Source: a virus
Taxonomy: Duplodnaviria; Caudoviricetes
Length of the DNA stretch: 40,636 nt
IMG/VR virus record: IMGVR_UViG_3300017937_000055
Span: 1 to 40,636 of that record
Direction: 5' to 3' (one strand)
The position numbers were made by a program, and so were the translations under genes. This document shows, piece by piece, positions 7,353-40,636 of this stretch. Under the pieces are notes generated by a model. That model saw only the letters and a list, made by a program, of their open reading frames with translations. It was not told the origin of the DNA and made no database searches. The first letter of the stretch is position 1, and each line of letters opens with the position of its first letter.

Positions 7353-7912
7353 GCAAGGAAGCGAGAGAATGGTTGAAACGCCAGCGAATTGCCGACGCCT
7401 CGCTTAAGGCGGTAGTCCGCGCAATCGCTTGGAGTGCCGATAAGGGCGGCGGCGAATGTCGCGCCGCGCAAAGCGACCTCGCCGAAGAGGCATCAATGAC
7501 AGACAGGGCAGTTCGTGCTGCGCTGGTCGTCCTTGAACGTCTGGAAATCGTCCAGCGCAAATCCCGCAGCAAGGGGAAATACGGCCGCACGACTGACTTG
7601 GTGGTTCTGGCCCTCGATCGCAATTTCGACGTGTCGAAGGCGTCAATCCGGGCTGTCCGAAGGAGCCTTCGTCCGGCTCTGCAACCGGAACCGCGTTCCG
7701 GTAACGAGAAAATCTGCAACCGGAACCGCGTTCCTCTGCAACCGGAACCGCGTTCCGGGGAATATAACCCGGTTGACCCAGAACCGCCTTATCAGGAAGG
7801 GAACAGTACTGAGGTTGAAGGTTATGCTCGGCATTGGGGAGAGGCACACCCCCATGACAGGGACACCCCTACTGCCAAGGTGATCACGCTGCCCGTGCGA
7901 GGTGCGGCATGA
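7349..7912 (+). CDS. HTH replication initiator (lambda O-like)
   Basis: ATGA-coupled start; QSDLAEEASMTDRAVRAALVVLE winged HTH; contains iterons. Confidence 0.75.
   Translation: MSKEAREWLKRQRIADASLKAVVRAIAWSADKGGGECRAAQSDLAEEASMTDRAVRAALVVLERLEIVQRKSRSKGKYGRTTDLVVLALDRNFDVSKASIRAVRRSLRPALQPEPRSGNEKICNRNRVPLQPEPRSGEYNPVDPEPPYQEGNSTEVEGYARHWGEAHPHDRDTPTAKVITLPVRGAA
7678..7756 (+). repeat. Three exact 22-bp iterons, putative replication origin
   Basis: TCTGCAACCGGAACCGCGTTCC at 7678-7699, 7713-7734 and 7735-7756, each with dyad GGAAC-CGC-GTTCC. Confidence 0.8.
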
Positions 7913-9415
7913 CCCTGTGGCCTCACCAAGCGACCGCCATCGACCTGATCTGGCAATCCATGGCAACGGGCCATCGCCGTCCGGTCCTGATGATGGCGAC
8001 CGGAGCCGGCAAGACGAAAACCGCCGCTGCGATCATCAAGCGGGCTCTGGCGAAGGGCAAGCGGGTTGTGTTCGTCGTTCCCGCGCTGGAGCTGATCGAC
8101 CAAACGATCAAGGCCTTCCGCAAGGAGGGCATTCTCGAGATCGGCGTCATCCAGGCCAATCATCCCGAAACCGATCCGTCTCGCTCGGTTCAGGTCGCCA
8201 GCGCACAGACATTGGTGCGGCGGGCATTCCCCGAAACCGATCTCGTGATTGTCGATGAGGCTCACCGGGTGCAGCGCCGGATTTTCGAGTGGATGAAGCT
8301 CTGCCCGAAACTGCCGTTCATCGGGTTGAGCGCCACGCCGTGGACCAAGGGTCTCGGCAAGCACTATGACGATCTGATCATCGGCGCGACGACGAAGCAG
8401 CTGATCTCGATGATCAACCCCGATACCGGCAGGACATACCTCTCGCCGTTCCGGGTTTTCGCGCCAAGCCATCCCGACCTGACAGGGGTCAGCACCGTCG
8501 CCGGTGATTACCACGAGGGGCAGTTGGCCGACGCCATGGGACAAGCCGCAGATCACGGCTGATGTGGTCTCGACCTGGCTGAAGCTCGGCGAAAACCGGC
8601 CGACTCTTTGCTTCGCCGTCAACAGAGCGCATGCCCGCAGCCTGGAACGGGATTTTCGTCAGGCAGGCGTCGGGGTCGGTTATGTCGATGGCAACACCGA
8701 TCGTGATGAGCGGCAAGCGATCCGGGAAGCGTTCGAACGCGGCGACATCAAGGTGGTCGTCAATGTCGGCGTGTTGACGACGGGCGTCGATTGGGATGTG
8801 CGCTGCCTGATCCTGGCGCGGCCGACCAAATCGGAAATGCTCTACGTCCAGATCATCGGACGTGGCCTTCGCTCAGCGCCGGGCAAGCAGGATTGCGTGA
8901 TCCTCGACCATTCCGACACGACGCTGAACCTCGGCTTCGTGACGGATATCCATCATGAGCGGCTGAGCGACGGGACAGAGCGCAAAGCTTCCATCAGCAA
9001 GCGGCGCGAGCGCCCGACGCCTCTGCCGAAGGAATGCCCGTCTTGTCATCACGTGAAGCCGATCGGCGTCCATAAATGCCCGGCCTGCGGCTTCGCACCG
9101 CACCGGGTGCAGGATGTACATACCGCTCAAGGGGAACTCGCCCATCTCGGCGGCAAGCAGCTCAGGGCCGATATGGAAACCAAGAGGAAATGGTTCGCCA
9201 TGCTGCTGTGGTACGAGGAGGAAAAGCAGTACCGGCACGGTTGGGCCGCGAACAAATATCGGGAGAAATTCGGCGTCTGGCCGAATGGCATGCACGTCAT
9301 GCCCGTCATGCCGGATGTCCAGGTGAACAACTGGATCAAATCCACGCAGATCAGGTGGATCAAGGGCCAGCAGAAGGCGAAGAAATTGGCGGAGGCCGCG
9401 CAGCATGCGGCATGA
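7909..9415 (+). pseudogene. SF2 DEAD/DEAH helicase with Zn ribbon, split by a 1-nt frameshift
   Basis: ATGAGKT, DEAH, SAT in 7909-8562; TTGVD, QIIGRGLR, CPSC..CPAC in 8504-9415; removing one G at 8538-8540 restores ...ADAMDKPQITAD... Confidence 0.8.
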
Positions 9416-24418: not shown

Positions 24419-27400
24419 ATGGCAACTGAACAGGTCCGCGTCCTTCGCGTCCGTTCTGAAGAGAGCGGCAGCGACAAGGTTGCGGCGGCTCTCAATAAGG
24501 TCGCTGCAGGTGCGACGGCGGCGGATAAAGCCGTCCAGAAGTATATCGACGATGCCAATGCGAGCGTGAGGCCCGTGGCGGAGGCGCTGGCAAAGTCGCA
24601 GGACGATTTTGCGAAGGCGACGCTCTCGACGGCGCGCAGCATTCAGAGCCTTGAGCAACGTATCGATCCCGTGGCACGGGCGCTGAGCGACTACGAAAAA
24701 GCCCAGAAGCGCGTCAATCTCGCGATCGATTCAGGTCAGATCAGCGCAGAGAAGGGCGCAACGATCCTCGCCGGCTATGAGAGCCGCTACGTCAAGGCTT
24801 CGCAGAGCGCGAGCAAGTTCGCCAACGACAACGAGAAGGCGTTCGCTCTCAATCGTGCTGGCATGATGGAACTGCGCGCCGCCGGCATCAATGCGTTTCA
24901 GGCACTCGCGTCAGGTATGAGCGCGACGCAAGTCGCGATGATGGAGGGCAGCCAGGTCATCGGCGCATTCGTCCAGGGGGCAGAGGGAGGCATCGGCGGG
25001 GCGCTGAAGGGCCTCGGCAGCAGCCTTCTCGGCGTCGGCTCCGGTATCCTTGCGACTTTCGGGACATTCCCCGTGGTCGCGATCGGCGCGACAGCCGCTG
25101 TTGCCGGTCTTTACAAAGGTTTCAGCGTTCTCGACGACTGGATGACGCACACCACTGCCGACGCGAAGGAATTCGCGACCTGGCTGGACAAGATCGGGCA
25201 GGGCGCAAACACGACTGCGGATTTCATCGATAAGGTCGGCAAAGCCATCCATGGAATGTCGCTCGTCGATCTCAACAAGACGGCGCGCGGATCAGCCGAG
25301 GATATCAAGAAACTTCAGGGCCAGCTCACAAATCCCTTGGCGGAAGCGGCTGGATGGGAGGGCAACATTTCCAACCCGGCGTTCGTTCGGACCTATCAGG
25401 AAATCGACGCTATCATCGATAAATTGAAGGGGGACGGCTACGCGAGCTTGGAAGATTTACATGCCGCGCTCGACAAAGTCGTTCAGGAACGCCCTGGCTT
25501 GCAGCGGCAGGCTGAGACATGGGAAAAAATTGGTGAGGAAATCCTTAAAGCCAAAGAAGCGGGGAAACAGTTTCAGCAACAGCAGGAGCGAATTGCCCAC
25601 GGCTACGGCTCCTATCAGCCCCGCGACAACGCCGCGTTGCAGAAATACTTCTCGGGTGATGCGCTTGCCGACGCGAAGGCACAGCAGGCGGTCGCGCTCC
25701 AGTCGATCAACGCCCGGACCGTAGCGCAGAGAGCTGCGGCCGCCGCCGCAGAAGTCGCAGCACGTCCGTTCGACCCAAATCAGAATCCCAATGTTCGCCT
25801 TTTCGAGGAAGGAGCCGCAAGCGCGAAGGTTTTTGCCGAGGCCACGCGGCAGGCCAACGATGCTCTCCGGGACACGCAGGATGCGCTGAAAACAGCCGGT
25901 CTCGACGGCTATGCGCGTTCTCTTGCCGAGATCAACGTCCAGCTTCAGCGCCAGATCGAACTCAACCCCGAGAACGCGGCGACATGGGAGAAGGTCGCCG
26001 ACGCGCAGAAGAAGGCGCTCGCCATCAACACGGTCAAGAGCTTTTATGATCCGCTGCAGGAGCAGCTTGGGTCATTGAAGGCAGAGGCCTCGACGATCTT
26101 CGCCAGCGACGACGCCCACCGCAAGCTGCTGGCGACCTTGCAGGCGGAAAACGATCTTCGGCGTCAGGGCATCGACCTCGGCTCTTCCTTCGCCCAGGGC
26201 TATGAGCATGACGTCGTCGCGATCTCCAATTATGCGGCGGCGGTCGGGCGGATCAAGGACGCGTGGGATCAGGTCAAGCAGGGCGGCGGCCAGGCCATCG
26301 ATGATCTTGTGAACGGCCTGACCGATGGCACGTCCAAGATCAGCGACGTGCTCAAGAACGTCACGAATGACCTGCTGAAGACGTTCACGCATCTTGGCGT
26401 CTCAAATCCGCTGAAGAACCTGATCTTTGGACAGCACCTGCCGACGCTTTCCGATCTGTTCAGCCCGACGCCGCAGGCACCATCATTGTCCACGCCGGGC
26501 CTCGGCTCGCTCGGCACTGTCATGAACCCGATGTACGTCGTTCCAGTCGCAGGCGCTGGCGGACTTGGTGGCGGCACCGGTGGCTTAGCTAGCCTGTTCA
26601 CCGATCCCATTGGCACGGTAAGCAAGTGGCTTGGCCTCGGCGGCACGGCGGGCGGCAATCCGACCATCGGCGCTGCGGCGACCGCGATCAAGGGCATCGA
26701 AAGCGGCGGCGACTACAGCGTCGTCAACAAGGTGACGGGAGCCTTGGGCGCATACCAGGTCATGCCGGAAAACGTCGCGTCGTGGACGAAGCAGGCGCTC
26801 GGCTATTCGATGACGCCGGACCAGTTCCTCAATTCATCTTCTGCGCAGGATAGCGTCTTCGCCAAGATCTTCGGCGGCTATATGTCGAAATACGGCCCGA
26901 GCGGCGCGGCGCAGGCATGGTTCGGCGGTCCCGGTTCGGTCGGCAAGAACGTTTCCGACGCCCTCGGCACGACATCGAGCGCCTATGTCGACAAGTTCAA
27001 CGCGGCGCTTGGCAGCGCGACGGACGCTACCGGCATCGCCGCGAAGGGCCTCGGCGCGCTCGGCAGCGGCTTCGATCGCTTTGGCCAAAGCCTAGCCAAT
27101 GTCTTTCCTGCCGCTCCATCCAGTGGTGGCGGAGGCATGTTCGGCTGGCTGGGCAATTTGTTCGGAGGCAGCTCGCCTACGTTTTCCAGCACCGCAGATG
27201 AACTCGCCTATTGGGGCTTTGCGGCAGGAACGCCGGCAGCGCCTCCGGGGTGGGCATGGGTCGGCGAGCAGGGGCCGGAGCTGATGCGCTTCAGGGGCGG
27301 TGAGACCGTGCTGCCGCACCCCGTCTCGATGGGCCTTGTTCGCGGCTATGCGAATGGCACGCCTGATGTTGCGAAAGGTCTCAAACCGCCGAGCGGCGCT

Positions 27401-27607
27401 GGCGGCAATGTGAATGTGAACATCCAACCACCGGCGGGCTACGAAGCCCACACGAACAAAACGCCCGATGGCAAGGGCGGCATGAACGTCAATGTCATGT
27501 TCCGGCAGATCAAGGGCATGCTGGCGAAGGACATCGCGGAGGGCGGCCAGACCGCCAAAGCCATCGGCGGCCGCTTCGGCATCGCCATGCAGCCGCAGGG
27601 TATTTGA
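24419..27607 (+). CDS. Tape measure protein with lytic transglycosylase-like domain
   Basis: 1062 aa Ala-rich helical; IESGGDY..GAYQVMP; WVGEQGPEL. Confidence 0.9.
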   Translation: MATEQVRVLRVRSEESGSDKVAAALNKVAAGATAADKAVQKYIDDANASVRPVAEALAKSQDDFAKATLSTARSIQSLEQRIDPVARALSDYEKAQKRVNLAIDSGQISAEKGATILAGYESRYVKASQSASKFANDNEKAFALNRAGMMELRAAGINAFQALASGMSATQVAMMEGSQVIGAFVQGAEGGIGGALKGLGSSLLGVGSGILATFGTFPVVAIGATAAVAGLYKGFSVLDDWMTHTTADAKEFATWLDKIGQGANTTADFIDKVGKAIHGMSLVDLNKTARGSAEDIKKLQGQLTNPLAEAAGWEGNISNPAFVRTYQEIDAIIDKLKGDGYASLEDLHAALDKVVQERPGLQRQAETWEKIGEEILKAKEAGKQFQQQQERIAHGYGSYQPRDNAALQKYFSGDALADAKAQQAVALQSINARTVAQRAAAAAAEVAARPFDPNQNPNVRLFEEGAASAKVFAEATRQANDALRDTQDALKTAGLDGYARSLAEINVQLQRQIELNPENAATWEKVADAQKKALAINTVKSFYDPLQEQLGSLKAEASTIFASDDAHRKLLATLQAENDLRRQGIDLGSSFAQGYEHDVVAISNYAAAVGRIKDAWDQVKQGGGQAIDDLVNGLTDGTSKISDVLKNVTNDLLKTFTHLGVSNPLKNLIFGQHLPTLSDLFSPTPQAPSLSTPGLGSLGTVMNPMYVVPVAGAGGLGGGTGGLASLFTDPIGTVSKWLGLGGTAGGNPTIGAAATAIKGIESGGDYSVVNKVTGALGAYQVMPENVASWTKQALGYSMTPDQFLNSSSAQDSVFAKIFGGYMSKYGPSGAAQAWFGGPGSVGKNVSDALGTTSSAYVDKFNAALGSATDATGIAAKGLGALGSGFDRFGQSLANVFPAAPSSGGGGMFGWLGNLFGGSSPTFSSTADELAYWGFAAGTPAAPPGWAWVGEQGPELMRFRGGETVLPHPVSMGLVRGYANGTPDVAKGLKPPSGAGGNVNVNIQPPAGYEAHTNKTPDGKGGMNVNVMFRQIKGMLAKDIAEGGQTAKAIGGRFGIAMQPQGI

Positions 27608-27982: not shown

Positions 27983-28524
27983 TGGCGACCGTTACCGAAG
28001 CCTGGCAGGAAGCGATTGCGTCGGCGCCGGCCGATATGGTCGTGCTCTCGACGCTGGAACTGATCCATCCGACTTTTGTCGATGACCAGGGCAACCCGGA
28101 TTCGATCCGGGTCGTGCTCGACGAAGAGGATCACACCTTCACGCTTGAGGCGACGGCGCCGCTCCATGCCGGCCAGCAAGTCCTTTTCGAAGCACTGGCG
28201 CTGACCGTAACGCAGCCCGAGCAGGAAGATGGCAAGCTTGGCGGTTCGCTACAGATCGAACTCGATAACGTGCCTCGTACGATCCTGCCCAGCCTGCATG
28301 CGGCTGCATCGGTCAGGGCGCGCGCGCAGATCATCTACCGCGAATATGTGCTCGACGACACGACCGAACCTGATCTCGTCATCGACGGGCTTTCGGCCAA
28401 GATCGTCCAGATCACGCAGACGAAGATCACCTGTTCCGCAACCTTCCTCGACCTGCTGAACGCGTCGTTCCCGACGCGCATTTTCAGCCAGGAGGACTTT
28501 CCCGGACTCTTCGACGGATCATGA
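27982..28524 (+). CDS. DUF1833-like tail tip protein
   Basis: TLELIHP, IELDNV, FPTRIF...FPGLF. Confidence 0.75.
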   Translation: MATVTEAWQEAIASAPADMVVLSTLELIHPTFVDDQGNPDSIRVVLDEEDHTFTLEATAPLHAGQQVLFEALALTVTQPEQEDGKLGGSLQIELDNVPRTILPSLHAAASVRARAQIIYREYVLDDTTEPDLVIDGLSAKIVQITQTKITCSATFLDLLNASFPTRIFSQEDFPGLFDGS

Positions 28525-28931
28525 TCACGCCCGAATTCGTCAACAATCTGATTGGCAGACCCTACAAGCCCGGCGCCACCGGCCCGGACGCCTTCGACTG
28601 CTATGGGCTCACGCGTCTCGTCCAGTCGGTCGGCTGGGGTCGCGACCTGCCGGATATCGTCGTGCCGGAGATCGACGACAGGCGCATCTTCATTGCGCTG
28701 TTCCGCCAGCATGCCGGCGACCATCGCTGGCGGCAGGTTGAGCGCTTTGGCCATGGCACGATCGTCACCATGGCCCGCCACGATAACGCGCTCCACGTCG
28801 GGACGTATCTCGATTTCGACGGCGGCGGCGTCCTGCACGCGCTGGAGAGACCGGGCGTCCAGTTCGATCCGCTGCCCTGCCTGAAAGCGACCGGCTGGCG
28901 GCGCTTCCGCTTCTACGAGCCGGTGACATGA
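28521..28931 (+). CDS. NlpC/P60 tail assembly protein
   Basis: IGRPY..G..GPDAFDCYGL, HVGTY, VLHA. Confidence 0.88.
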   Translation: MITPEFVNNLIGRPYKPGATGPDAFDCYGLTRLVQSVGWGRDLPDIVVPEIDDRRIFIALFRQHAGDHRWRQVERFGHGTIVTMARHDNALHVGTYLDFDGGGVLHALERPGVQFDPLPCLKATGWRRFRFYEPVT

Positions 28932-29002
28932 TCGCAACTGTGTCCACATCATGGGGCGACATTCGGGTCGATCTATCAGAGCCGACGCCGGAAGAGATCG
29001 CG

Positions 29003-29245
29003 TCAGCTCTCGCCTCGTTCAACGACCTTCAGCCCGTTGATGAAAGCGCGGATGGCATGCTTGTCGCCCATCACCATGCCGTCCGTCGCCATCGTTCGGG
29101 CAACCGAGTGTTCGATCCCGTCAATGACGCGCCGAACGGTCTCTCTACCGCCGGTATGCCTCAACTCGACGAGAATTTCACGAAAGCAAGTGAGGGCGAA
29201 GAACGAAAGATCAATACCACTGATTTGGTCTTTTTCGCTGGCCAT
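29003..29245 (-). CDS. Small hypothetical moron protein
   Basis: 80 aa preceded by GGGAGG 6 nt upstream of ATG. Confidence 0.6.
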   Translation of the reverse strand: MASEKDQISGIDLSFFALTCFREILVELRHTGGRETVRRVIDGIEHSVARTMATDGMVMGDKHAIRAFINGLKVVERGES

Positions 29246-29270
29246 CTGTTTCCTCCCATAGGTGACGGCG

Positions 29271-32200
29271 ATGACCGTTGATCAGTTGACGCCGAGAGTC
29301 CAGCGATGCGCGCCGCGCGTCCTGCATTTCCGCGAGGTCCTGGCCGATCGGCCGCGCGGCATCCTGCTCGCCCGACCGATGACGATCGCCGAGGTGATCG
29401 AAAAGCATCACATCGATGTCAACCGCCTACCGACCATCGCCATGATTGGCGAGGAAGCGGTGCTGCGCGGCCAATGGAACGTCAGGCTGGTGCGCGAGAA
29501 CGAGGTGCTGCTTTTCATCGCCATGCCGCGTGGCGGCGGCGGTGGCGGCAGCGGCAAGCAGATCGCCGGCCTGATCGCCAGCCTGGCGCTCGTCATCGCC
29601 GCGCCCTATGTCGGCGGCGCGGTGGCCGGGCTCTTCGGACTGTCATCGACCGGCGCTGTCGCCGGCATTTCCTCCGCAGCCTTCCTCATTGGCGGCCGAC
29701 TGCTCCTGAATGCTGTCCTGCCGAGCCAGTCGGCGAAGAACACATCGGTTCCGTCCGTCAGCGCCGGGAGCAATCAGGCGTCGCCGCTCGACGTTGTACC
29801 GGTCCTCTATGGCAATAGGCGCTATGCGCCGCGCTTCGCGTCGGCTCCCTATTCCGAGTACCAGGACAACGATCAGTATCTCTATCAGCTGCTGGCCGTG
29901 ACGTTGGGTTATTGCTCGATCAAGAAGATCGAGATCGGCGACACGCCGATGTGGACGCCCGACGGCGGCGTCAACACCACCTGGCCGGATACGGAGGTGC
30001 AGATCTGCGCGCCGGGCGAGGCGATGACGCTCTTCCCGGCCAATGTGGAAACGTCCTCGGAAGTTTCCGGTCAGACGCTTCCGAGCGCGGTGGACGGCGC
30101 AATTCAGTGGCTCGGTCCTTATGTCGTCAACGCGGCCGGCGCGACGATCGATAAGCTCGCCATCGACTTCGCCTGCCCTTCCGGTCTCTACAAGACCGGC
30201 AGCAGCGGCAGCATCAAAAGCGTCACGGCCGAACTCGATGCCGAATATCGTGCGGTTGATGATGCCGGCGATCCGGTGGGCGACGGCACATGGTCGACGC
30301 TCTATGCGGAAAATCTGTCAATGGCGACGCGCACGCCGCAGCGCTTCACCAAGACAATTGATGTTGCGCCGGCGCGCTACGAGGTCAGGTTCGGCCGTCA
30401 TGACAGCCAGACGGACGCCGGAACCGATACGATCGTGTGGGCCGGCCTGCGCGGCTATCTCCGGGATTTCAAGCTTGCGGATGGCGTCACCTATCTCGCC
30501 ATCAAGATCAAGGCGAACGACCGGCTGAGCCAGCAATCGGCTTCGCAGATCAATGTGACGGCGACGCGCATGTTGCCGGTCTATGATCCGGGCACCGGCG
30601 TCTGGTCAGCGCCGCAGGAAACGCAGTCGATCGCCTGGGCGGCGGCCGATATCTGCCGCAATACCGATTACGCGGCGGCGCTCGCCGATTATCAATATGA
30701 TCTCGCCTGGCTGGCGACCTATGATGGCGTCTGGACCACGCGCGGCGACACGTTCAACTTCGTCTTCGACAGCAAGCAATCGATCGAGGCGGCGTTGCGC
30801 ACCGTGCTGCGCGCTGGCCGCGCCCAGCCGATCCGGCTCGGCGGCATGCTGGGCTTCGTGCGCGACGAGCCGAAGACGATCCGCCGCGCCGTGTTCACGC
30901 CGCGCAACGTCGTCAAGGGCTCCTTCCAGGAGAAGATCGTCCTCTTCGACGACACGAGCCCCGACAGCGTGCGGGTGCAGTACGTATCCGACAACACATG
31001 GCGCACCGCTTCCGTCGTCTGTCAAGCGCCGGGCTATTCCGTCGATCAACCCGCCGATCTCCAGCTCGACGGCATCACCGACTATCATCAGGCATGGCGC
31101 GAGGGCACCTATGCCGCCGCTTCAAATGCCTTTCGAAGGCGGTTCTTCAGCTTTCAGGCCGAATGGGACGGCCGCATCCTGACCAAAGGCGCCCGGGTGC
31201 TTGTCCAGCATCCGATCCTTGAGGCCAATCAATCGGGAGCCATCCTCGCCCTCGATGGCGACACGCTGACGCTCGATCGCGATGTGACGCTCGATGAAGG
31301 CGACAATTACCTGACGATCCGAACCAAGACGGGCTTCGAATGGGGCATGGTCAAGGTGACGACCGGCGGCGACGCGCGGACATTGGTGATGGATGCCGCA
31401 AGCCGCGCCGATGTGGAAACGGCTATGGGCGCGCTCGCCGACCAGATGCCGGCGGAATCCGCGGAGGACGCGCACTTCATCCTCTATGGCCAGTCAGGGG
31501 AGGAATTTTCGGCCCTGGTCGTCTCTTGCGAACCTGACGATCCGGACCATGTGACCGTCACCACGGTCATCGACGATTCGCGCGTCCATACGGCCGATCA
31601 GACGCAGACGGAGCCGACCCCGCCGATCGGCAATCAGCTGCCGGTCATCCCGTCGCGTCCGGTCATCGATGTCACGACAGTCAGCGCCTCGGTGCAGAAG
31701 GGAACGCTGTCCTATCAGGTTTATGTCGGCTATTCGCCGGCAGTCGGGGCCAAGAGCTACAATGCGGAGGTCAGCTATGATGATCAAGCGACCTGGCAGC
31801 CGGTCTATGACGGGATTGCCGTGCATTGGTCCGCACCCGTTCTGGCAACTGCGTTCTTTCTGCGCATCCAGGCGATCGGCGAGCAAGCCGGGCCATTTGT
31901 TGTCGTATCGATCAATCAGGACCAGCTGCCCGATCCGCGTTTGAGCGTTGCCGATGGCGATCTCTATCCCATCACGGATGCCCAGGCAGACCAGATCCTC
32001 AAGGGCGTACTCTCCTTCATCGGCGACCAGGCCAAAGCTGCCCTTCATGCGGCGCAATCGCTATCGAGCCTTGTCGCCGATCATGTCTCGACAGCCTATG
32101 AGAACGTCCAGCAAATCCAAACCGTCCTGACCTCGCAATATCAGGACGCCGATGCGAAGGTCACGGCGGCCTATACACAGGCGATCCTTGTCGCGACCGG

Positions 32201-32798
32201 ACCTGGGTCGGCCATCGTACAGCAGTTGACGACGTTACAGGCCACTATACCGACGCTGGCGACGGCAACAGCACTCAATGCTCTTACAGCCCGCGTCTCC
32301 ACCAATGAGGGCGATATCGACAGCATCTCAGTCGCGCTGACACAAGTGCAAGCGACCTTGCCGAACAAAGCTGATGCCAGCACGGTTTCCGATCTTAGTT
32401 CGGAGGTGAGCACTCAGGGTGGACAGATCACCGCCAATTCGAACGCCATTACCCAGACGAACGCGACGGTCGGAAAGTTTTCAGCAAGCGGGCTCTCACG
32501 CATCTATGCCACGGCCACCAATAGCGGTGCAGCTGCAACAGTTGCTTACGGTGCAACGGCATCTTCTGGCGCTGGGAATCCGACAGTTGCGGCATTCTAT
32601 GCCGATGCGATGTCTGATGGAACAAGCCGGCTCGTCTTGCTGGCGAACCAGACGCTGATCATGGATGCAAATGGCAATCTGGCAGCTATGTTCCAGGCAG
32701 GCACCGCGTTCCTTAATTCGACTGTCATTGGCACGGCGACCATCACCTCACCAAAGCTGTACGACATAGAGGCCGAAGATCTTGCCGAGGCGGCATGA
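29271..32798 (+). CDS. Tail tip / host-specificity protein J-like, with N-terminal ubiquitin-like (gpI-type) domain
   Basis: N-terminal domain ending PRGGGGGG; VPVLYG; coiled-coil C-terminus; about 1175 aa. Confidence 0.88.
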   Translation: MTVDQLTPRVQRCAPRVLHFREVLADRPRGILLARPMTIAEVIEKHHIDVNRLPTIAMIGEEAVLRGQWNVRLVRENEVLLFIAMPRGGGGGGSGKQIAGLIASLALVIAAPYVGGAVAGLFGLSSTGAVAGISSAAFLIGGRLLLNAVLPSQSAKNTSVPSVSAGSNQASPLDVVPVLYGNRRYAPRFASAPYSEYQDNDQYLYQLLAVTLGYCSIKKIEIGDTPMWTPDGGVNTTWPDTEVQICAPGEAMTLFPANVETSSEVSGQTLPSAVDGAIQWLGPYVVNAAGATIDKLAIDFACPSGLYKTGSSGSIKSVTAELDAEYRAVDDAGDPVGDGTWSTLYAENLSMATRTPQRFTKTIDVAPARYEVRFGRHDSQTDAGTDTIVWAGLRGYLRDFKLADGVTYLAIKIKANDRLSQQSASQINVTATRMLPVYDPGTGVWSAPQETQSIAWAAADICRNTDYAAALADYQYDLAWLATYDGVWTTRGDTFNFVFDSKQSIEAALRTVLRAGRAQPIRLGGMLGFVRDEPKTIRRAVFTPRNVVKGSFQEKIVLFDDTSPDSVRVQYVSDNTWRTASVVCQAPGYSVDQPADLQLDGITDYHQAWREGTYAAASNAFRRRFFSFQAEWDGRILTKGARVLVQHPILEANQSGAILALDGDTLTLDRDVTLDEGDNYLTIRTKTGFEWGMVKVTTGGDARTLVMDAASRADVETAMGALADQMPAESAEDAHFILYGQSGEEFSALVVSCEPDDPDHVTVTTVIDDSRVHTADQTQTEPTPPIGNQLPVIPSRPVIDVTTVSASVQKGTLSYQVYVGYSPAVGAKSYNAEVSYDDQATWQPVYDGIAVHWSAPVLATAFFLRIQAIGEQAGPFVVVSINQDQLPDPRLSVADGDLYPITDAQADQILKGVLSFIGDQAKAALHAAQSLSSLVADHVSTAYENVQQIQTVLTSQYQDADAKVTAAYTQAILVATGPGSAIVQQLTTLQATIPTLATATALNALTARVSTNEGDIDSISVALTQVQATLPNKADASTVSDLSSEVSTQGGQITANSNAITQTNATVGKFSASGLSRIYATATNSGAAATVAYGATASSGAGNPTVAAFYADAMSDGTSRLVLLANQTLIMDANGNLAAMFQAGTAFLNSTVIGTATITSPKLYDIEAEDLAEAA

Positions 32799-33790
32799 CC
32801 GCGATCAATGCTGTGGTGCTGGCGAATGAGGCGCATCTCTTCACTGACGCCGGCCATTATGATCCAAACAGCCTCATCCTGCGCTCGATCGGCGGCAAGG
32901 TGCATATTCTGGCGCGTATCCCGGCCGTGGTGGCGTTCACCGGGCCGTCGCGGGGCGGTGAAGCGATCCTGCGGGAACTGGAGAGACGCGACGCGACGGA
33001 CCCGTTCGCCGCAATCCAGGCCTTCTGCGGGGCGGTCGGAGAAGAAATCAAAAGGGAGAAAATAGAAGGCCGCTATTCGGCGCTCCTGCTTGGCGCACAG
33101 CGCGGTGTGGTGATCGATGAAGCGGGCAAGTTGACGCCGCTCTTTCCCGGCCGCGTGATCAAGTCCCTGCCGTCACCCATCCGGTTCGATCCGGAGGATG
33201 TCGTTTCGAGCGGACTTGCCATGGTCATCGATCAACGGGCGCGGCATGGTGTCGTCTCAGGCTATTGCCAGCATACGGTCGTCCGGGAAAGCGGGATCAC
33301 GTCGAGAATTCTGCACCGCTGGCCGGATGTGCCGGTAGCAGCCGAAGCCGCGACGATCGCTGCCATGATCGCCGATCTGACGGTGGACACGATCAATTTC
33401 GCGCCGGGAGCCGTGACCGGCGTCGTTTCGGCAAGCGGCTCGGCAAGCGATATCCAGGCCGGCAATGTCTCGGTCAATTGCCCGAACCCGTTCGGCTTTC
33501 CGATCAAGATCCTGACGGACATCGCCTATTCCTATTCCGGGACGGCAGGTTCTTCGAGTGCTTCGATCGAGATCATCATCAACCGGGATGGCGCGCAGCT
33601 CTACGACAAGACCATCACTTTCACCGGCAGCGGCAGCAAGTCCAGCAATCTAGCTCCGGCCTTCCTCGATCAAACCACGGCAGGCCACACCTATTCGATG
33701 AAGATCACCGTCCACGGCGATCCGAACGGTTCGGGCGGCATAGCCTCCGCCTCGGGCGGCAATCTCGTCTGCCTCTACACGCAGAAATGA
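32795..33790 (+). CDS. Ntn-hydrolase/proteasome-beta-like domain fused to a tail-tip module
   Basis: After Met removal T1, D17, K34, G49; C-terminal beta-rich domain begins AMIADLTVDTINFAPGAVT. Confidence 0.55.
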   Translation: MTAINAVVLANEAHLFTDAGHYDPNSLILRSIGGKVHILARIPAVVAFTGPSRGGEAILRELERRDATDPFAAIQAFCGAVGEEIKREKIEGRYSALLLGAQRGVVIDEAGKLTPLFPGRVIKSLPSPIRFDPEDVVSSGLAMVIDQRARHGVVSGYCQHTVVRESGITSRILHRWPDVPVAAEAATIAAMIADLTVDTINFAPGAVTGVVSASGSASDIQAGNVSVNCPNPFGFPIKILTDIAYSYSGTAGSSSASIEIIINRDGAQLYDKTITFTGSGSKSSNLAPAFLDQTTAGHTYSMKITVHGDPNGSGGIASASGGNLVCLYTQK

Positions 33791-33791
33791 C

Positions 33792-34241
33792 ATGGCGAAC
33801 ATAGGCGTTGCGCAGGTCGAGGCTTTCCACATTCCGGACGGCGCTGTCTCCGAATATACGACCGGCAGCCGGGCGAGCGACAGCAGCCAATTCGGGACGA
33901 AAACGCAGGATGTGACGATCGCGAATGAAGCCGGAACGCCCGTCGAACTGTGGGTCGATGGGCTGTTCACCATCAATTCGGCCAGCGGAGCGACGGTTCA
34001 GGGGAGCGCGACGGTCGGCATCAAGAGAAAGAGCGATGGGGTCTATCTCTTTAATTCAGCGCCGGACCACAGCACGAGAGGATCATATTCCAGCCCGGTC
34101 AACGGCCAGGCGATCGATCTCAACGCTGCAACGAACCAGACCTACACGATCGAAGTTTCGGCCTCCGCTTCGGGGGGTACGCTGAGCGCGGATAAGACAA
34201 CCATATCCTGCAACCTGACGCTCATCGCGTCAAAGAAATGA
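33792..34241 (+). CDS. Tail-tip module 2 (putative receptor-binding domain)
   Basis: Begins ANIGVAQVEAFHIPDGAVS; Ser/Thr/Gly beta-rich. Confidence 0.6.
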   Translation: MANIGVAQVEAFHIPDGAVSEYTTGSRASDSSQFGTKTQDVTIANEAGTPVELWVDGLFTINSASGATVQGSATVGIKRKSDGVYLFNSAPDHSTRGSYSSPVNGQAIDLNAATNQTYTIEVSASASGGTLSADKTTISCNLTLIASKK

Positions 34242-34543
34242 CCATGGCCAATATCGCCCAACTCGCCGTCGAGGGGATCAAGATCAAGAACGGCTCGTTG
34301 ACGCATTTCGTAAGCGGCGGCGGGACATCGATCACGGTTGCCAATGACGGGGAGAACCCGACCTTTCTCTGGCTGGAGAACGCGTCGGGCTCGATGACGG
34401 TAACACGCTCGCGCGACGGCGCGGTCATATTCGAGGGCGACGGCTATTTCCGCTCGGTCGCAGCCGATCGCTCTCACCAGGCAACGGAAACCTACACGGC
34501 CAACCAGGGCGTCATCCGCGGCGCGAATTTCCGCTGGCGCTGA
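34238..34543 (+). CDS. Tail-tip module 3
   Basis: Begins ANIAQLAVEGIKIKNGSLT; ATGA-coupled. Confidence 0.6.
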   Translation: MTMANIAQLAVEGIKIKNGSLTHFVSGGGTSITVANDGENPTFLWLENASGSMTVTRSRDGAVIFEGDGYFRSVAADRSHQATETYTANQGVIRGANFRWR

Positions 34544-34559
34544 TCATCAAGAGGAAATC

Positions 34560-34823
34560 ATGACGGACAAAAGGGAACAGCCTGGCGCGGCCGCGCCGGG
34601 AACGATCGCCATCGATCCGCGCGTGGCGCTGGAGGAACAGGTGGCCCTCGCGGAGTTCTGGCGCAACCGCGCCCTACTCAACGGGCAGAAGGCTTTCGAG
34701 CGCGAGGCGGCCATCAACACCGTGCAGGAAGCGACTGCCAAGGTGATTGCCGAGAACGAAGAGTTGCGCAAGGCGGCAGAACAGCCTGCCAACGTCGCGA
34801 AGCCCGACAAGAAGGTGAACTGA
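34560..34823 (+). CDS. Small coiled-coil tail-region protein
   Basis: 87 aa, GAGG RBS. Confidence 0.65.
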   Translation: MTDKREQPGAAAPGTIAIDPRVALEEQVALAEFWRNRALLNGQKAFEREAAINTVQEATAKVIAENEELRKAAEQPANVAKPDKKVN

Positions 34824-34826
34824 TCC

Positions 34827-35669
34827 ATGGCTGTCATCAACTTGCCCGATTGGGTCGGCGGAACGATCACGCTCACCGCTGGCCAGACCGGCTTTTCCGT
34901 CAGCGGCGTCGATCTCACGGTGATCGATGTCCAACCCGGCGATCAGATTTATCACACGACAACCGGCCGTTGGCTCATCATCGGGGCTGTCACCGGCACG
35001 ACGACGGGCGATCTCGCCTATGCCTGCCCGGCCGATCTGGCGGGAACCGGCCTGGCACTGCGCATCCGCTATCAGCCCGATGTGACCCGCATGCTGGCGG
35101 CGCTCCAGAAACTGCAGGCGCTCCGTGCCGGCGGCAATCTCGATGCCTTGGCCGGTCTGACCGGCGCTCCAGACACCGGATTCGCTTTCAACGGCGCCGG
35201 CACGATGTTTGAGTATGATTTGCCATCCATAGCGCGCGACTTTCTCGCCGCCGATTTCATGCCCGTCGAACAAGGCACCCACAAAATCAAAATTGATTGG
35301 AATTCTGCGGGTTATATGGAGAGCGACATCGACAATGGAGCTGCACTTCTCGGAAGAATCTGGGCCGATTTTGAGGCTGGTCGCAGCCTTTCCTCGCCCG
35401 CCGGCTATCAGAAGTTTCCCGGCGGCTTTGTCTTCCAGTGGACCTATCTGACGAACATCTCTGATGTTGCGTGGACGTTTCCCGTCGCGTTTCCGACCGA
35501 ATGCCTGGGTGCCAGCGCAATCGTTTCCAGAACGCTATGGACGGACGAGTCTCAGGCTTTCGTGCAGACCGACACCAAATCCGTCAACACGGTGAACATA
35601 AGGGTAAGGAACACAATTTCAGGTCTCACCGACCCGAGGAACGTTTCTGCTTTTGCATGGGGACATTAG
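34827..35669 (+). CDS. Tail fibre protein
   Basis: C-terminal GYQKFPGGFVFQW..FPVAFP..AWGH fibre tip pattern. Confidence 0.8.
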   Translation: MAVINLPDWVGGTITLTAGQTGFSVSGVDLTVIDVQPGDQIYHTTTGRWLIIGAVTGTTTGDLAYACPADLAGTGLALRIRYQPDVTRMLAALQKLQALRAGGNLDALAGLTGAPDTGFAFNGAGTMFEYDLPSIARDFLAADFMPVEQGTHKIKIDWNSAGYMESDIDNGAALLGRIWADFEAGRSLSSPAGYQKFPGGFVFQWTYLTNISDVAWTFPVAFPTECLGASAIVSRTLWTDESQAFVQTDTKSVNTVNIRVRNTISGLTDPRNVSAFAWGH

Positions 35670-37386: not shown

Positions 37387-37794
37387 TTAAGACACGCCCA
37401 ACAGGTTCGAAAGCTCGCCAATCAGTTCGTCTTTAGAGGGCTCGAAGAGCGAATCGAGAATTGATCTCATGCTTTTTCGAGCAATGATCTCATTGACCTT
37501 TTCGGTTGGTATGATCGGGTCAAACTGACATCGCACCACATGGTCATCGCGCGCCACCAGGTAGCACCCGATCAGTTCCGCGGGTATATCCGCGTCAAAC
37601 TGCATGTAGAAAAAATCTGGAACGGTTTTCGTCATTCCAAGATCGATGGAAGCCCCGTCCTCCGATATAGTCTGCAACGGGAACGTGGCCGAATGCACTT
37701 CGCGAATTCCTCGTGTGGGATAGATCAACTGCACCAGGAAATTCACCTCACGTCTAGGCCATTTCCGTCTTTCAACTCGCGTCGCCCGTGCCAT
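37387..37794 (-). CDS. PilZ-domain protein (moron)
   Basis: ERRKWPR (RxxxR) and TISEDGA (variant of D/NxSxxG). Confidence 0.75.
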   Translation of the reverse strand: MARATRVERRKWPRREVNFLVQLIYPTRGIREVHSATFPLQTISEDGASIDLGMTKTVPDFFYMQFDADIPAELIGCYLVARDDHVVRCQFDPIIPTEKVNEIIARKSMRSILDSLFEPSKDELIGELSNLLGVS

Positions 37795-39709: not shown

Positions 39710-40636
39710 TCACTTCTTTCCCGGCAATGCCTTCGGCTTAAAGGCTTCGATTGCCGCGGCGGCTTGTTTAGCGGCTATCTGGCCTTGGCTGACCTTCGTG
39801 TTCAGATATTTTGGAAGCCCGACAGTCAGATACGTTTTCCTTAGCCACTTTCGAAATTCGCCCAAGGCGTCGTCTGGGTAGCAATATGCGGGCTGAGGGT
39901 TGGAAAGAGCCTGGGGGAAGTACGTAGGATAATTGTGATCATATTGGCGGCGTTCTCCGTAGATTATCTCCAGGCTGTTTTCCTTCCAATATTTTGCCCA
40001 TGCGGAGCCGACGCTGATGTCCGGGATGAATTTATTCCCTAAATTCGCACCCTGCCGGATCATAGTCACTAAGACCTCCGCAATTTCCTTGAATACGGAG
40101 AAGTAGCCATCCGGAACAGTGTGGTAGGACAGGGACACGCGATCGTGAAACTGGCGCCATGCGATATCGACGGCACCTGTTGGATTGTATCCGACTTGGG
40201 AATAGATGAAGTCTTGGAAGCCTTTACGGGCAAGAGTCCGATAACTTTTCAACGCTTGGGCTTGGTTCGCCGTATTCGCTTCGAATGCATAGTATTCGAG
40301 GATCGCCATACAGACGACATCCGGAACAATGTGCTGAATGACCCCATCTTTCTCGAGAGCCCAGAAGGCAACTGTGTCGTCTCCGCCATTTTCGCGGATG
40401 ATTTCGCGGATGCGCTTTTCCCGTGGTTTCAACGGTTCATCAAGCCACTGTGCTGTGATCCTCACAATCATGGAATGGTCTACGCCGCACATCAGAGCGA
40501 GGCCACGAAGGGTGAGATAAGGAGTGCCATTGCTCAGCACGCCCATTCCGACGCCGTCGCGCTCTGTTTCAAGTACGATCGAAAAGTCGAACTGGCCCTG
40601 TGATGAGGCGGTGCTCGGGAGATTGTCGTTTGACAT
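39710..40636 (-). CDS. bstA: BstA-family abortive-infection phage defence protein
   Basis: 308 aa; MGVL.NGTPYLTLRGLA..CG, PDVVCMAILEYYA, YFSVFKEIA, SVG..W.KYW, YP..ALGEFRKWL match my recollection of Salmonella BTP1 BstA; position at prophage end after lysis genes. Confidence 0.85.
   Translation of the reverse strand: MSNDNLPSTASSQGQFDFSIVLETERDGVGMGVLSNGTPYLTLRGLALMCGVDHSMIVRITAQWLDEPLKPREKRIREIIRENGGDDTVAFWALEKDGVIQHIVPDVVCMAILEYYAFEANTANQAQALKSYRTLARKGFQDFIYSQVGYNPTGAVDIAWRQFHDRVSLSYHTVPDGYFSVFKEIAEVLVTMIRQGANLGNKFIPDISVGSAWAKYWKENSLEIIYGERRQYDHNYPTYFPQALSNPQPAYCYPDDALGEFRKWLRKTYLTVGLPKYLNTKVSQGQIAAKQAAAAIEAFKPKALPGKK

Follow-up and report, generated by a model that had tools for sequence, protein, structure and literature searches.

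The window (the whole 40.6-kb virus record, analysed here as a single contig) carries an integrase-like gene, replication genes, an HK97-like head, a siphovirus tail, an endolysin and BstA, with the labels of its left half assigned by eye. In its tail region (Table 1), a central tail fibre gene, J, ends without a tip domain and is followed at once by a gene in which a proteasome-beta-like enzyme domain is fused to a jelly-roll tip module; two free tip modules and a small closing gene come next. Several genes outside this array also deserve a record. The tape measure protein (24419-27607, +) matches the unnamed phrog_24990 and contains, around residues 740-870, a segment whose motif we take to be lytic-transglycosylase-like. 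An orphan of 117 residues (28928-29281, +), between the NlpC/P60 gene and J, has a GC3 of 0.58 versus about 0.75 and no family match in Pfam, PHROG or NCBIfam. A helicase-like gene (label by eye) stands in two overlapping frames (7909-8562 and 8504-9415, +), reflecting either a frameshift or a sequencing error. After the endolysin lies a 135-residue gene (37387-37794, -) that has no Pfam or PHROG family match and an RxxxR start, presumably PilZ-like, and the abortive-infection gene BstA occupies 39710-40636 (-; phrog_6287, E 1.3e-100).

Table 1. Features of the tail-tip region, in window positions
Feature	Positions	Strand	Basis or remark
NlpC/P60-only tail assembly gene (K-like)	28521..28931	+	PF00877 E 9e-8; outside the cassette
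Central tail fibre J, gpI-J fusion layout, no tip domain	29262..32798	+	phrog_31 E 5e-98, NF040662 E 4e-116
J terminal motif ITS with a 15-residue tail starting PK	32742..32795 (tail 32751-32795)	+	predicted substrate
Proteasome-beta-like Ntn enzyme domain	32795..33328	+	AlphaFold model, fold matches, conserved residues
Enzyme catalytic codons	Thr1 32798-32800, Asp17 32846-32848, Lys34 32897-32899, Gly49 32942-32944	+	numbering after Met removal
Linker, enzyme to module 1	33329..33361	+	lowest-confidence part of the AlphaFold model
Tip module 1, fused to the enzyme; TNF/C1q-like jelly roll after AMIADLTV repeat	33362..33790	+	fold match
Tip module 2, separate gene, starts MANI	33792..34241	+	sequence paralog of module 1
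Tip module 3, short separate gene, starts MANI	34244..34543	+	module profile E 5e-9; alternative ATG at 34238
Small cassette-closing gene	34560..34823	+	IDP.VAL...EF.RNR motif, read by eye
Side tail fibre	34827..35669	+	PF21882 E 1.5e-9, phrog_4209; outside the cassette

The gene at 32795-33790 codes for 331 residues, begins with MTAINAVVLANEAHLFTD at a start codon that shares ATGA with the stop codon of J, and closes its enzyme domain with VSGYCQHTVVRESG...RW. Its AlphaFold model (pLDDT 93) has two domains, of which the first, residues 1-178, matches proteasome beta (Z 19.1, rmsd 2.4, 168 aligned), Anbu (Z 17.1), HslV (14.8), BPH (13.9) and Connectase (10.2). An earlier note, made from the sequence alone, had read this part as a proteasome-beta/HslV-like Ntn hydrolase with Thr1, Asp17, Lys34 and Gly49 after Met removal, and both the fold and the positions of the four residues hold. 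The conservation in homologs on which it made its reading depend is likewise found: the four residues are kept in 17/17 fused relatives, and T/S, D, K/R and G occupy these positions in all 132 aligned relatives (132 of 152 proteins, with 20 omitted as fragments or longer forms). The extent that it gave, 32795..33340, captures the enzyme domain and misses the three tip modules that explain the enzyme. Helices 53-64 and 70-87 (H1/H2) are present in the model, and helix H3 is missing, strand 121-123 leading to helix 136-151 with no other helix on the way (pLDDT 97 in this region); only a short loop, at 23-28, stands where Connectase has its two-helix insert (S3-S4). For the second triad, sequence register places Ser at position 124 in 11/17 fused relatives, His, Tyr or Ser at 151, and Val at 154 in 16/17; by this register the equivalents of Asp166 and Ser169 are not kept.

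Pfam, PHROG and NCBIfam hold no family naming the enzyme or the modules (for the whole reading frame, one PHROG row at E 0.085), and a PDB sequence search gave no match to the enzyme. The ESM Atlas returned hypothetical clusters of ~200 residues at 0.96; in one of these, 27% of the members carry the Proteasome family. From a scan of 1.84 billion representatives came 293 enzyme relatives at E<=0.001; 16 of the best 150 are fusions of 315-332 residues like the query, and another search added one further fusion. These 17 fused proteins have 27-52% identity to the window's own, with a median of 38% among fused enzyme domains, and in all of them 10-15 residues separate a conserved Trp from the module start. 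Cultured phages gave no match by tblastn or blastn, plasmids a single match that we judged due to chance, and viral contigs none with a single enzyme domain, a 3-row alignment or J as query. On the enzyme tree fused and free forms are mixed, with 5-6 label changes, only 1-2 of them being required by strongly supported branches, and 9 free short relatives are interspersed with the fused ones. The junction of the J stop and the enzyme start is not an assembly error, as contigs of two runs from other studies bridge it with 0 changes. Contigs from RNA runs overlap parts of the cassette, though such contigs can be DNA.

The C-terminal domain of the fusion (residues 208-331) is matched by a TNF-like lectin (Z 9.6, rmsd 3.4, 112 aligned) and has a TNF/C1q-like jelly-roll fold; in Foldseek the same region also matches the C-terminal part of lambda gpJ (gpJ713). 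Module 2 is related to it in sequence (BLASTP in the locus set, E 6e-8; module profile E 8e-15), and the jelly-roll model of module 3 is middling (Z 7.5 at best, and 7.4 to a TNF-like lectin). At their N-terminus the modules have an A[KN]IxxLxV-like repeat, and their starts are exact: MA[KN]I in 9/10 of the gene-called matches shown, the tenth being a fragment. Across loci the modules group by position rather than by locus (6 label changes vs 18.4 when shuffled), and module 3 forms a clade of its own (support 98/97) that includes the first module of locus L006. Lambda J is a trimer, as is its tip (PMC11101478), and by analogy these three old paralogous modules suggest a single heterotrimeric knob.

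The J gene ends in a 10-residue repeat that aligns with one-piece J genes (those that carry a tip module as their last domain) just upstream of that module. Six J ends (5 distinct) are visible among the cassette loci; T-S-x-K is invariant in all six, and the J/enzyme junction is in each an ATGA or GTGA overlap. The tails are ragged, 9-15 residues across cassettes, and their likeness to the module starts is expected from periodicity alone, because the J end is itself a 10-residue repeat. Against a module-start profile, three of the six tails score poorly (the window -4.6 bits, rank 48 of 1171; L001 and L005 -0.8). Pro stands at P1' in 1/6 J ends. Before the candidate site J has ITS and the linker T-x-A, and the linker P1' varies among A, V, S and L.

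The earlier note also drew in the ubiquitin-like start of J. A glycine run after about 90 residues and an NlpC/P60-only gene upstream make this start fit, by layout, the described gpI-J fusion, in which such a gene lies upstream (PMC1779556); Pfam, NCBIfam and PDB searches gave no confirming profile or structure match. The proposed link of this start to the enzyme falls away, since that layout is missing from 4/5 of the cassette J starts read. The N-terminal parts of J differ widely among the cassette loci, and hence the cassette travels with the J end. The pair L001:5281-8004 and L005:4412-7003 has unlike J N-terminal parts, an identical C-terminal tail and a near-identical cassette, showing that the whole tip cassette was recently swapped.

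The conserved tail-tip cassette is real. In 7/7 cassette loci with the short enzyme seen in context (the window, L001=L004, L002, L003=L007, L005, L006 and L009), the layout is J end, enzyme and three modules. The synteny with J that the earlier note had asked about is thereby found, with the enzyme directly after the J end in 6/6 loci where J is visible. Its picture of a domain inserted between J and its tip stands in part: the enzyme lies between the J end and the modules, as a separate gene and not as a domain in J. A single ancestral cassette may lie behind the seven loci, of which L001 and L005 are close. Named cassette relatives are alphaproteobacterial (Aliihoeflea, Mesorhizobium). The L006 contig begins at the enzyme, here a free gene of 162 residues with three free modules behind it, and stops about 100 bases beyond module 3; given this free form, and the mixture of fused and free forms on the tree, the enzyme-module fusion is optional. 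The modules of this locus (L006:493-1687) stand in a different order, two of them coming from the short-module clade.

Comparison with J genes that hold their own tip is instructive. Among 400 genomes of the Aliihoeflea family (1 unscored), the module profile matched in 6, of which 1 has a split cassette and 5 have six one-piece J genes with a single module as the last domain. At the boundary, two of these (L033 and L037) read IANAAITS-AKIGDLQV and a third (L032) AAITT-AKI, and these sequences keep register with the ends of the split J genes. No enzyme lies within 1.5 kb of the one-piece J genes, and the short-enzyme profile matched in 0/5 of the one-piece-J genomes (positive control G001, 2e-69). 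Conversely, module-start pattern scans of viral contigs returned 19 and 44 loci with true modules on only 3 contigs, and the enzyme is present on 3/3 of these. A second genome scan (n=301) for split cassettes found only G002; two weak matches among the 301 genomes were rejected as transglycosylase-like. Sets of 4 and 8 genus genomes held no additional split cassettes, and in 401 order genomes the enzyme profile marked 1 short-type and 5 long-type places. A split three-module array without the enzyme was found in none of the genome and contig scans, a small sample in which the module searches were seeded from enzyme-bearing cassettes. The small gene that closes the cassette has no Pfam or PHROG family match; a look-alike lies 3' of the one-piece J in L031, its motif being common to both by eye.

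Longer relatives of the enzyme (205-280 residues) occur in satellite-like elements (L010, L040-L044, L092, L096-L123), some of which carry two, and have tape-measure-like genes, side fibres and gpI-like fragments as neighbours; they are present in 21/251 genomes of one genus. None lay between a J end and modules (neighbours of 34 loci inspected by eye, two giving no output), and we therefore treat them as a separate subfamily, possibly with a second tail-processing or tail-hijacking role. In one protein, P0088, a linker containing ITS connects a long-type enzyme to a different J-tip-like domain; this comparable fusion appears to have arisen independently.

To place J relative to the active site, a complex of enzyme residues 2-178 with the last 32 residues of J was modelled from custom-made alignments. 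It scored 0.75, the best of 3 controls reaching 0.01, with runs agreeing in at least 74% of contacts and a partner pLDDT of at least 61; the mark set for this score is reached by 116/157 solved pairs and 2/215 mismatched pairs. The modelled interface comprises Thr1, Lys34, Gly49 and strand 119-126, which is exposed for the J tail because helix H3 is missing. Residues 14-30 of the 32 contact the enzyme and residues 21-28 pair with this strand. The J tail is thus predicted to lie across Thr1 in the manner of Connectase binding its substrate, the model speaking to the placement of the tail and not to bond or chemistry. The high score may stem from resemblance to solved complexes of Connectase with peptides, 6zw0 being among the fold matches.

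We propose that the enzyme is a Connectase-like ligase that would swap the J tail for the modules, giving each J chain a different knob and the phage a three-part heterotrimeric tip. To this reading, in which the ligation itself is a prediction, we assign a probability of roughly 0.55; it is backed by the three-module cassette, the one-piece J controls and the complex model, and corresponds to one of the earlier note's suggestions, a transpeptidase attaching tip modules, which the new evidence favours. Connectase cuts R1-KDPGA... between KD and PGA, holding R1 as an amide on Thr1/Ser1, and then transfers R1 to whichever protein begins with PGA... once its Met is removed; one motif is common to the donor tail and the acceptor, both of which bind as an induced beta-strand (PMC7980362). 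The anatomy of the cassette is alike, with a donor J-ITS/xK... (the slash marking the candidate cut) and acceptors (M)A[KN]I..., and the exact module starts set against the ragged J tails recall the donor/acceptor asymmetry of Connectase (PMC7980362). By this analogy, the enzyme likely works as Connectase does.

We infer the cut site, the ligation, the heterotrimer and the release of module 1 as follows. Met removal would free Thr1 of the enzyme and the N-terminal Ala of the modules. The enzyme would then bind the J tail as an added beta-strand, as predicted, and cut J after ITS (between Ser and Pro in the window), releasing the tail. J would be passed to the A[KN]I amine of a module, resulting in an ITS-AKI sequence such as the one-piece J genes encode directly. 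On the J homotrimer, the three TNF-like modules would together form a heterotrimeric knob. Where the enzyme is fused to module 1, this module would have to be freed beforehand at the linker, in which the xKIxxLxV motif recurs; as an alternative, a single J chain might remain amide-linked to Thr1 of the fusion. Two further points concern the chemistry. Proteolysis by the proteasome suffers when Asp166 is lost, and a nucleophilic Thr1 amine is then favoured (PMC4792962); hence, the positions of Asp166 and Ser169 not being kept, by register, counts for a ligase. Further, Pro in the donor and Ala in the acceptor at P1' make Connectase one-way (PMC11745163), and the window has a donor Pro and acceptor Ala residues. 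Counted against a ligase are the absence from the enzyme of the two hallmark features of Connectase, the poor profile scores of three J tails, the occurrence of Pro at P1' in a single J end, and the unlike residues that precede the candidate site in J and in the linker.

The main rival is the maturation protease that the earlier note had named as another option. Such an enzyme would trim the J tail after ITS and cut itself from module 1, leaving the modules to dock non-covalently on the J trimer and continue its beta-repeat. This fits most of the data: the fold, the conservation, the co-occurrence and the complex model are equally compatible with it, most characterised proteasome-like enzymes hydrolyse (PMC8665760), and non-covalent docking has been proposed for separate-gene J tips lacking an enzyme in Dhillonvirus and other phages (PMC12309495). 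However, it leaves unexplained why J keeps a tail that has to be removed, given that a stop codon placed behind ITS would make the enzyme needless; the positions aiding hydrolysis, Asp166 and Ser169, are by register not kept; and a free enzyme persists in L006, where no module needs release. We regard trimming as a possible, though less likely, reading.

Other explanations fit worse than a trimming protease. An enzyme borne on the virion tip and directed, as the phage adsorbs, at an amide or peptide of the host surface would account for its fusion to a tip module in the 17 proteins, but we hold it improbable in light of the free form in L006 and the free relatives on the tree, its absence beside one-piece J, and a predicted ligand that is J's own tail. 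Still less probable is a counter-defence role. The central tail fibre is the target to which Bil attaches a ubiquitin-like protein (10.1101/2023.09.04.556158), and an enzyme encoded next to J might strip such tags off; yet this does not predict so strict a link with a split J and three modules, and a ubiquitin-like layout is missing from most of the cassette J starts read. The earlier note's suggestion that the enzyme removes host-added adducts accordingly found no support in our analysis. The two remaining possibilities we consider very remote. A passenger gene inserted into J and carried along without a tip role would accord with the frequency of the longer relatives in satellite-like elements, but not with catalytic residues that are invariant at the median identity given above, a fixed position and a GC3 of 0.73, like that of other tail genes. 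Joining of J to modules at the DNA or ribosome level, by repeat recombination or a frameshift, with the enzyme only excising itself, is invited by the repeat-like J end and module starts and by the overlapping junctions, yet no slippery heptamer occurs at 6/6 junctions and no joints appear in contigs of 4 runs (contigs drop rare variants).

Turning to known systems, the enzyme has the core fold and the triad with Gly47 oxyanion hole by which Fuchs, Alva and Lupas (2021) delimit the proteasome-like family; it is a member of this broad family and not a Connectase, a 20S beta/HslV subunit or a PPH. With Connectase it shares the Thr/Ser1 Ntn fold, a prime-side motif common to donor and acceptor with the acceptor made by Met removal, and, as predicted here, a substrate bound as an added beta-strand across the active site. 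It differs in having 12% identity, in keeping H1/H2 while lacking both the two-helix insert and H3, and in being phage-encoded beside its likely substrates and known from sequence and models; whereas Connectase recognises KDPGA of MtrA, the candidate sites here are TSxK and A[KN]I. The core fold and the Thr1-Asp17-Lys33-Gly47 set are common to 20S beta, HslV, Anbu and BPH, unlike which the window's enzyme has no propeptide and sits within a tail cassette. In 20S beta and HslV, H3/H4 serve ring-ring contact and a second triad comprises Ser129, Asp166 and Ser169; here H3 is absent and, by register, the last two are not kept.

Phage-borne proteasome homologs, PPH and AAH, have already been published, and the C-terminal domains of the Firmicute FC4 are said to resemble phage tail proteins; the available part of that survey gives no telling gene context or function for PPH, AAH or FC4 (PMC8665760). 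Compared by description, PPH has about 140 residues and lacks H2 (PMC8665760), whereas the window's domain has 178 residues and H2; FC4 is from Firmicutes, in contrast to the alphaproteobacterial origin of the named cassette relatives. Lambda gpJ and separate tips show the same J trimer, beta-prism fibre and trimeric beta-sandwich tip (PMC11101478, PMC12309495), and in Dhillonvirus, Traversvirus and Littlefixvirus the tip domain can be a separate downstream gene, as here (PMC12309495, PMC11101478). Tips of the Dhillonvirus type are modelled as homotrimers of one gene that dock non-covalently without an enzyme (PMC12309495), unlike the three position-specific paralogs and enzyme of the cassette. 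A heterotrimer in the T1 structure paper was rejected as a parallel, being a head cement protein. Searches of the open-access literature turned up neither an account of the three-module cassette nor one of a phage tail ligase. Phage heads offer a precedent for the covalent joining of structural proteins after translation, as in the lambda gpE-gpC fusion products and the HK97 cross-links; to our knowledge these concern the head and not the tail, use other chemistry, and involve no dedicated Ntn enzyme or choice of acceptor.

If the ligase reading is true, virion assembly would include a dedicated protein ligase, and phages would have a new way to build the tip with which they recognise their hosts: the three-fold symmetry of the J tip would be broken, leaving three subunits free to evolve separately. 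It would also provide the first concrete function, substrate and assay for phage-borne proteasome homologs, for which the 2021 survey, in its available part, offered no functional clues. Further, it would establish a second natural family of Connectase-like ligases, small and with a short tag encoded alongside, working on swappable knobs. Even a trimming protease would still leave an undescribed cassette for tail-tip maturation.
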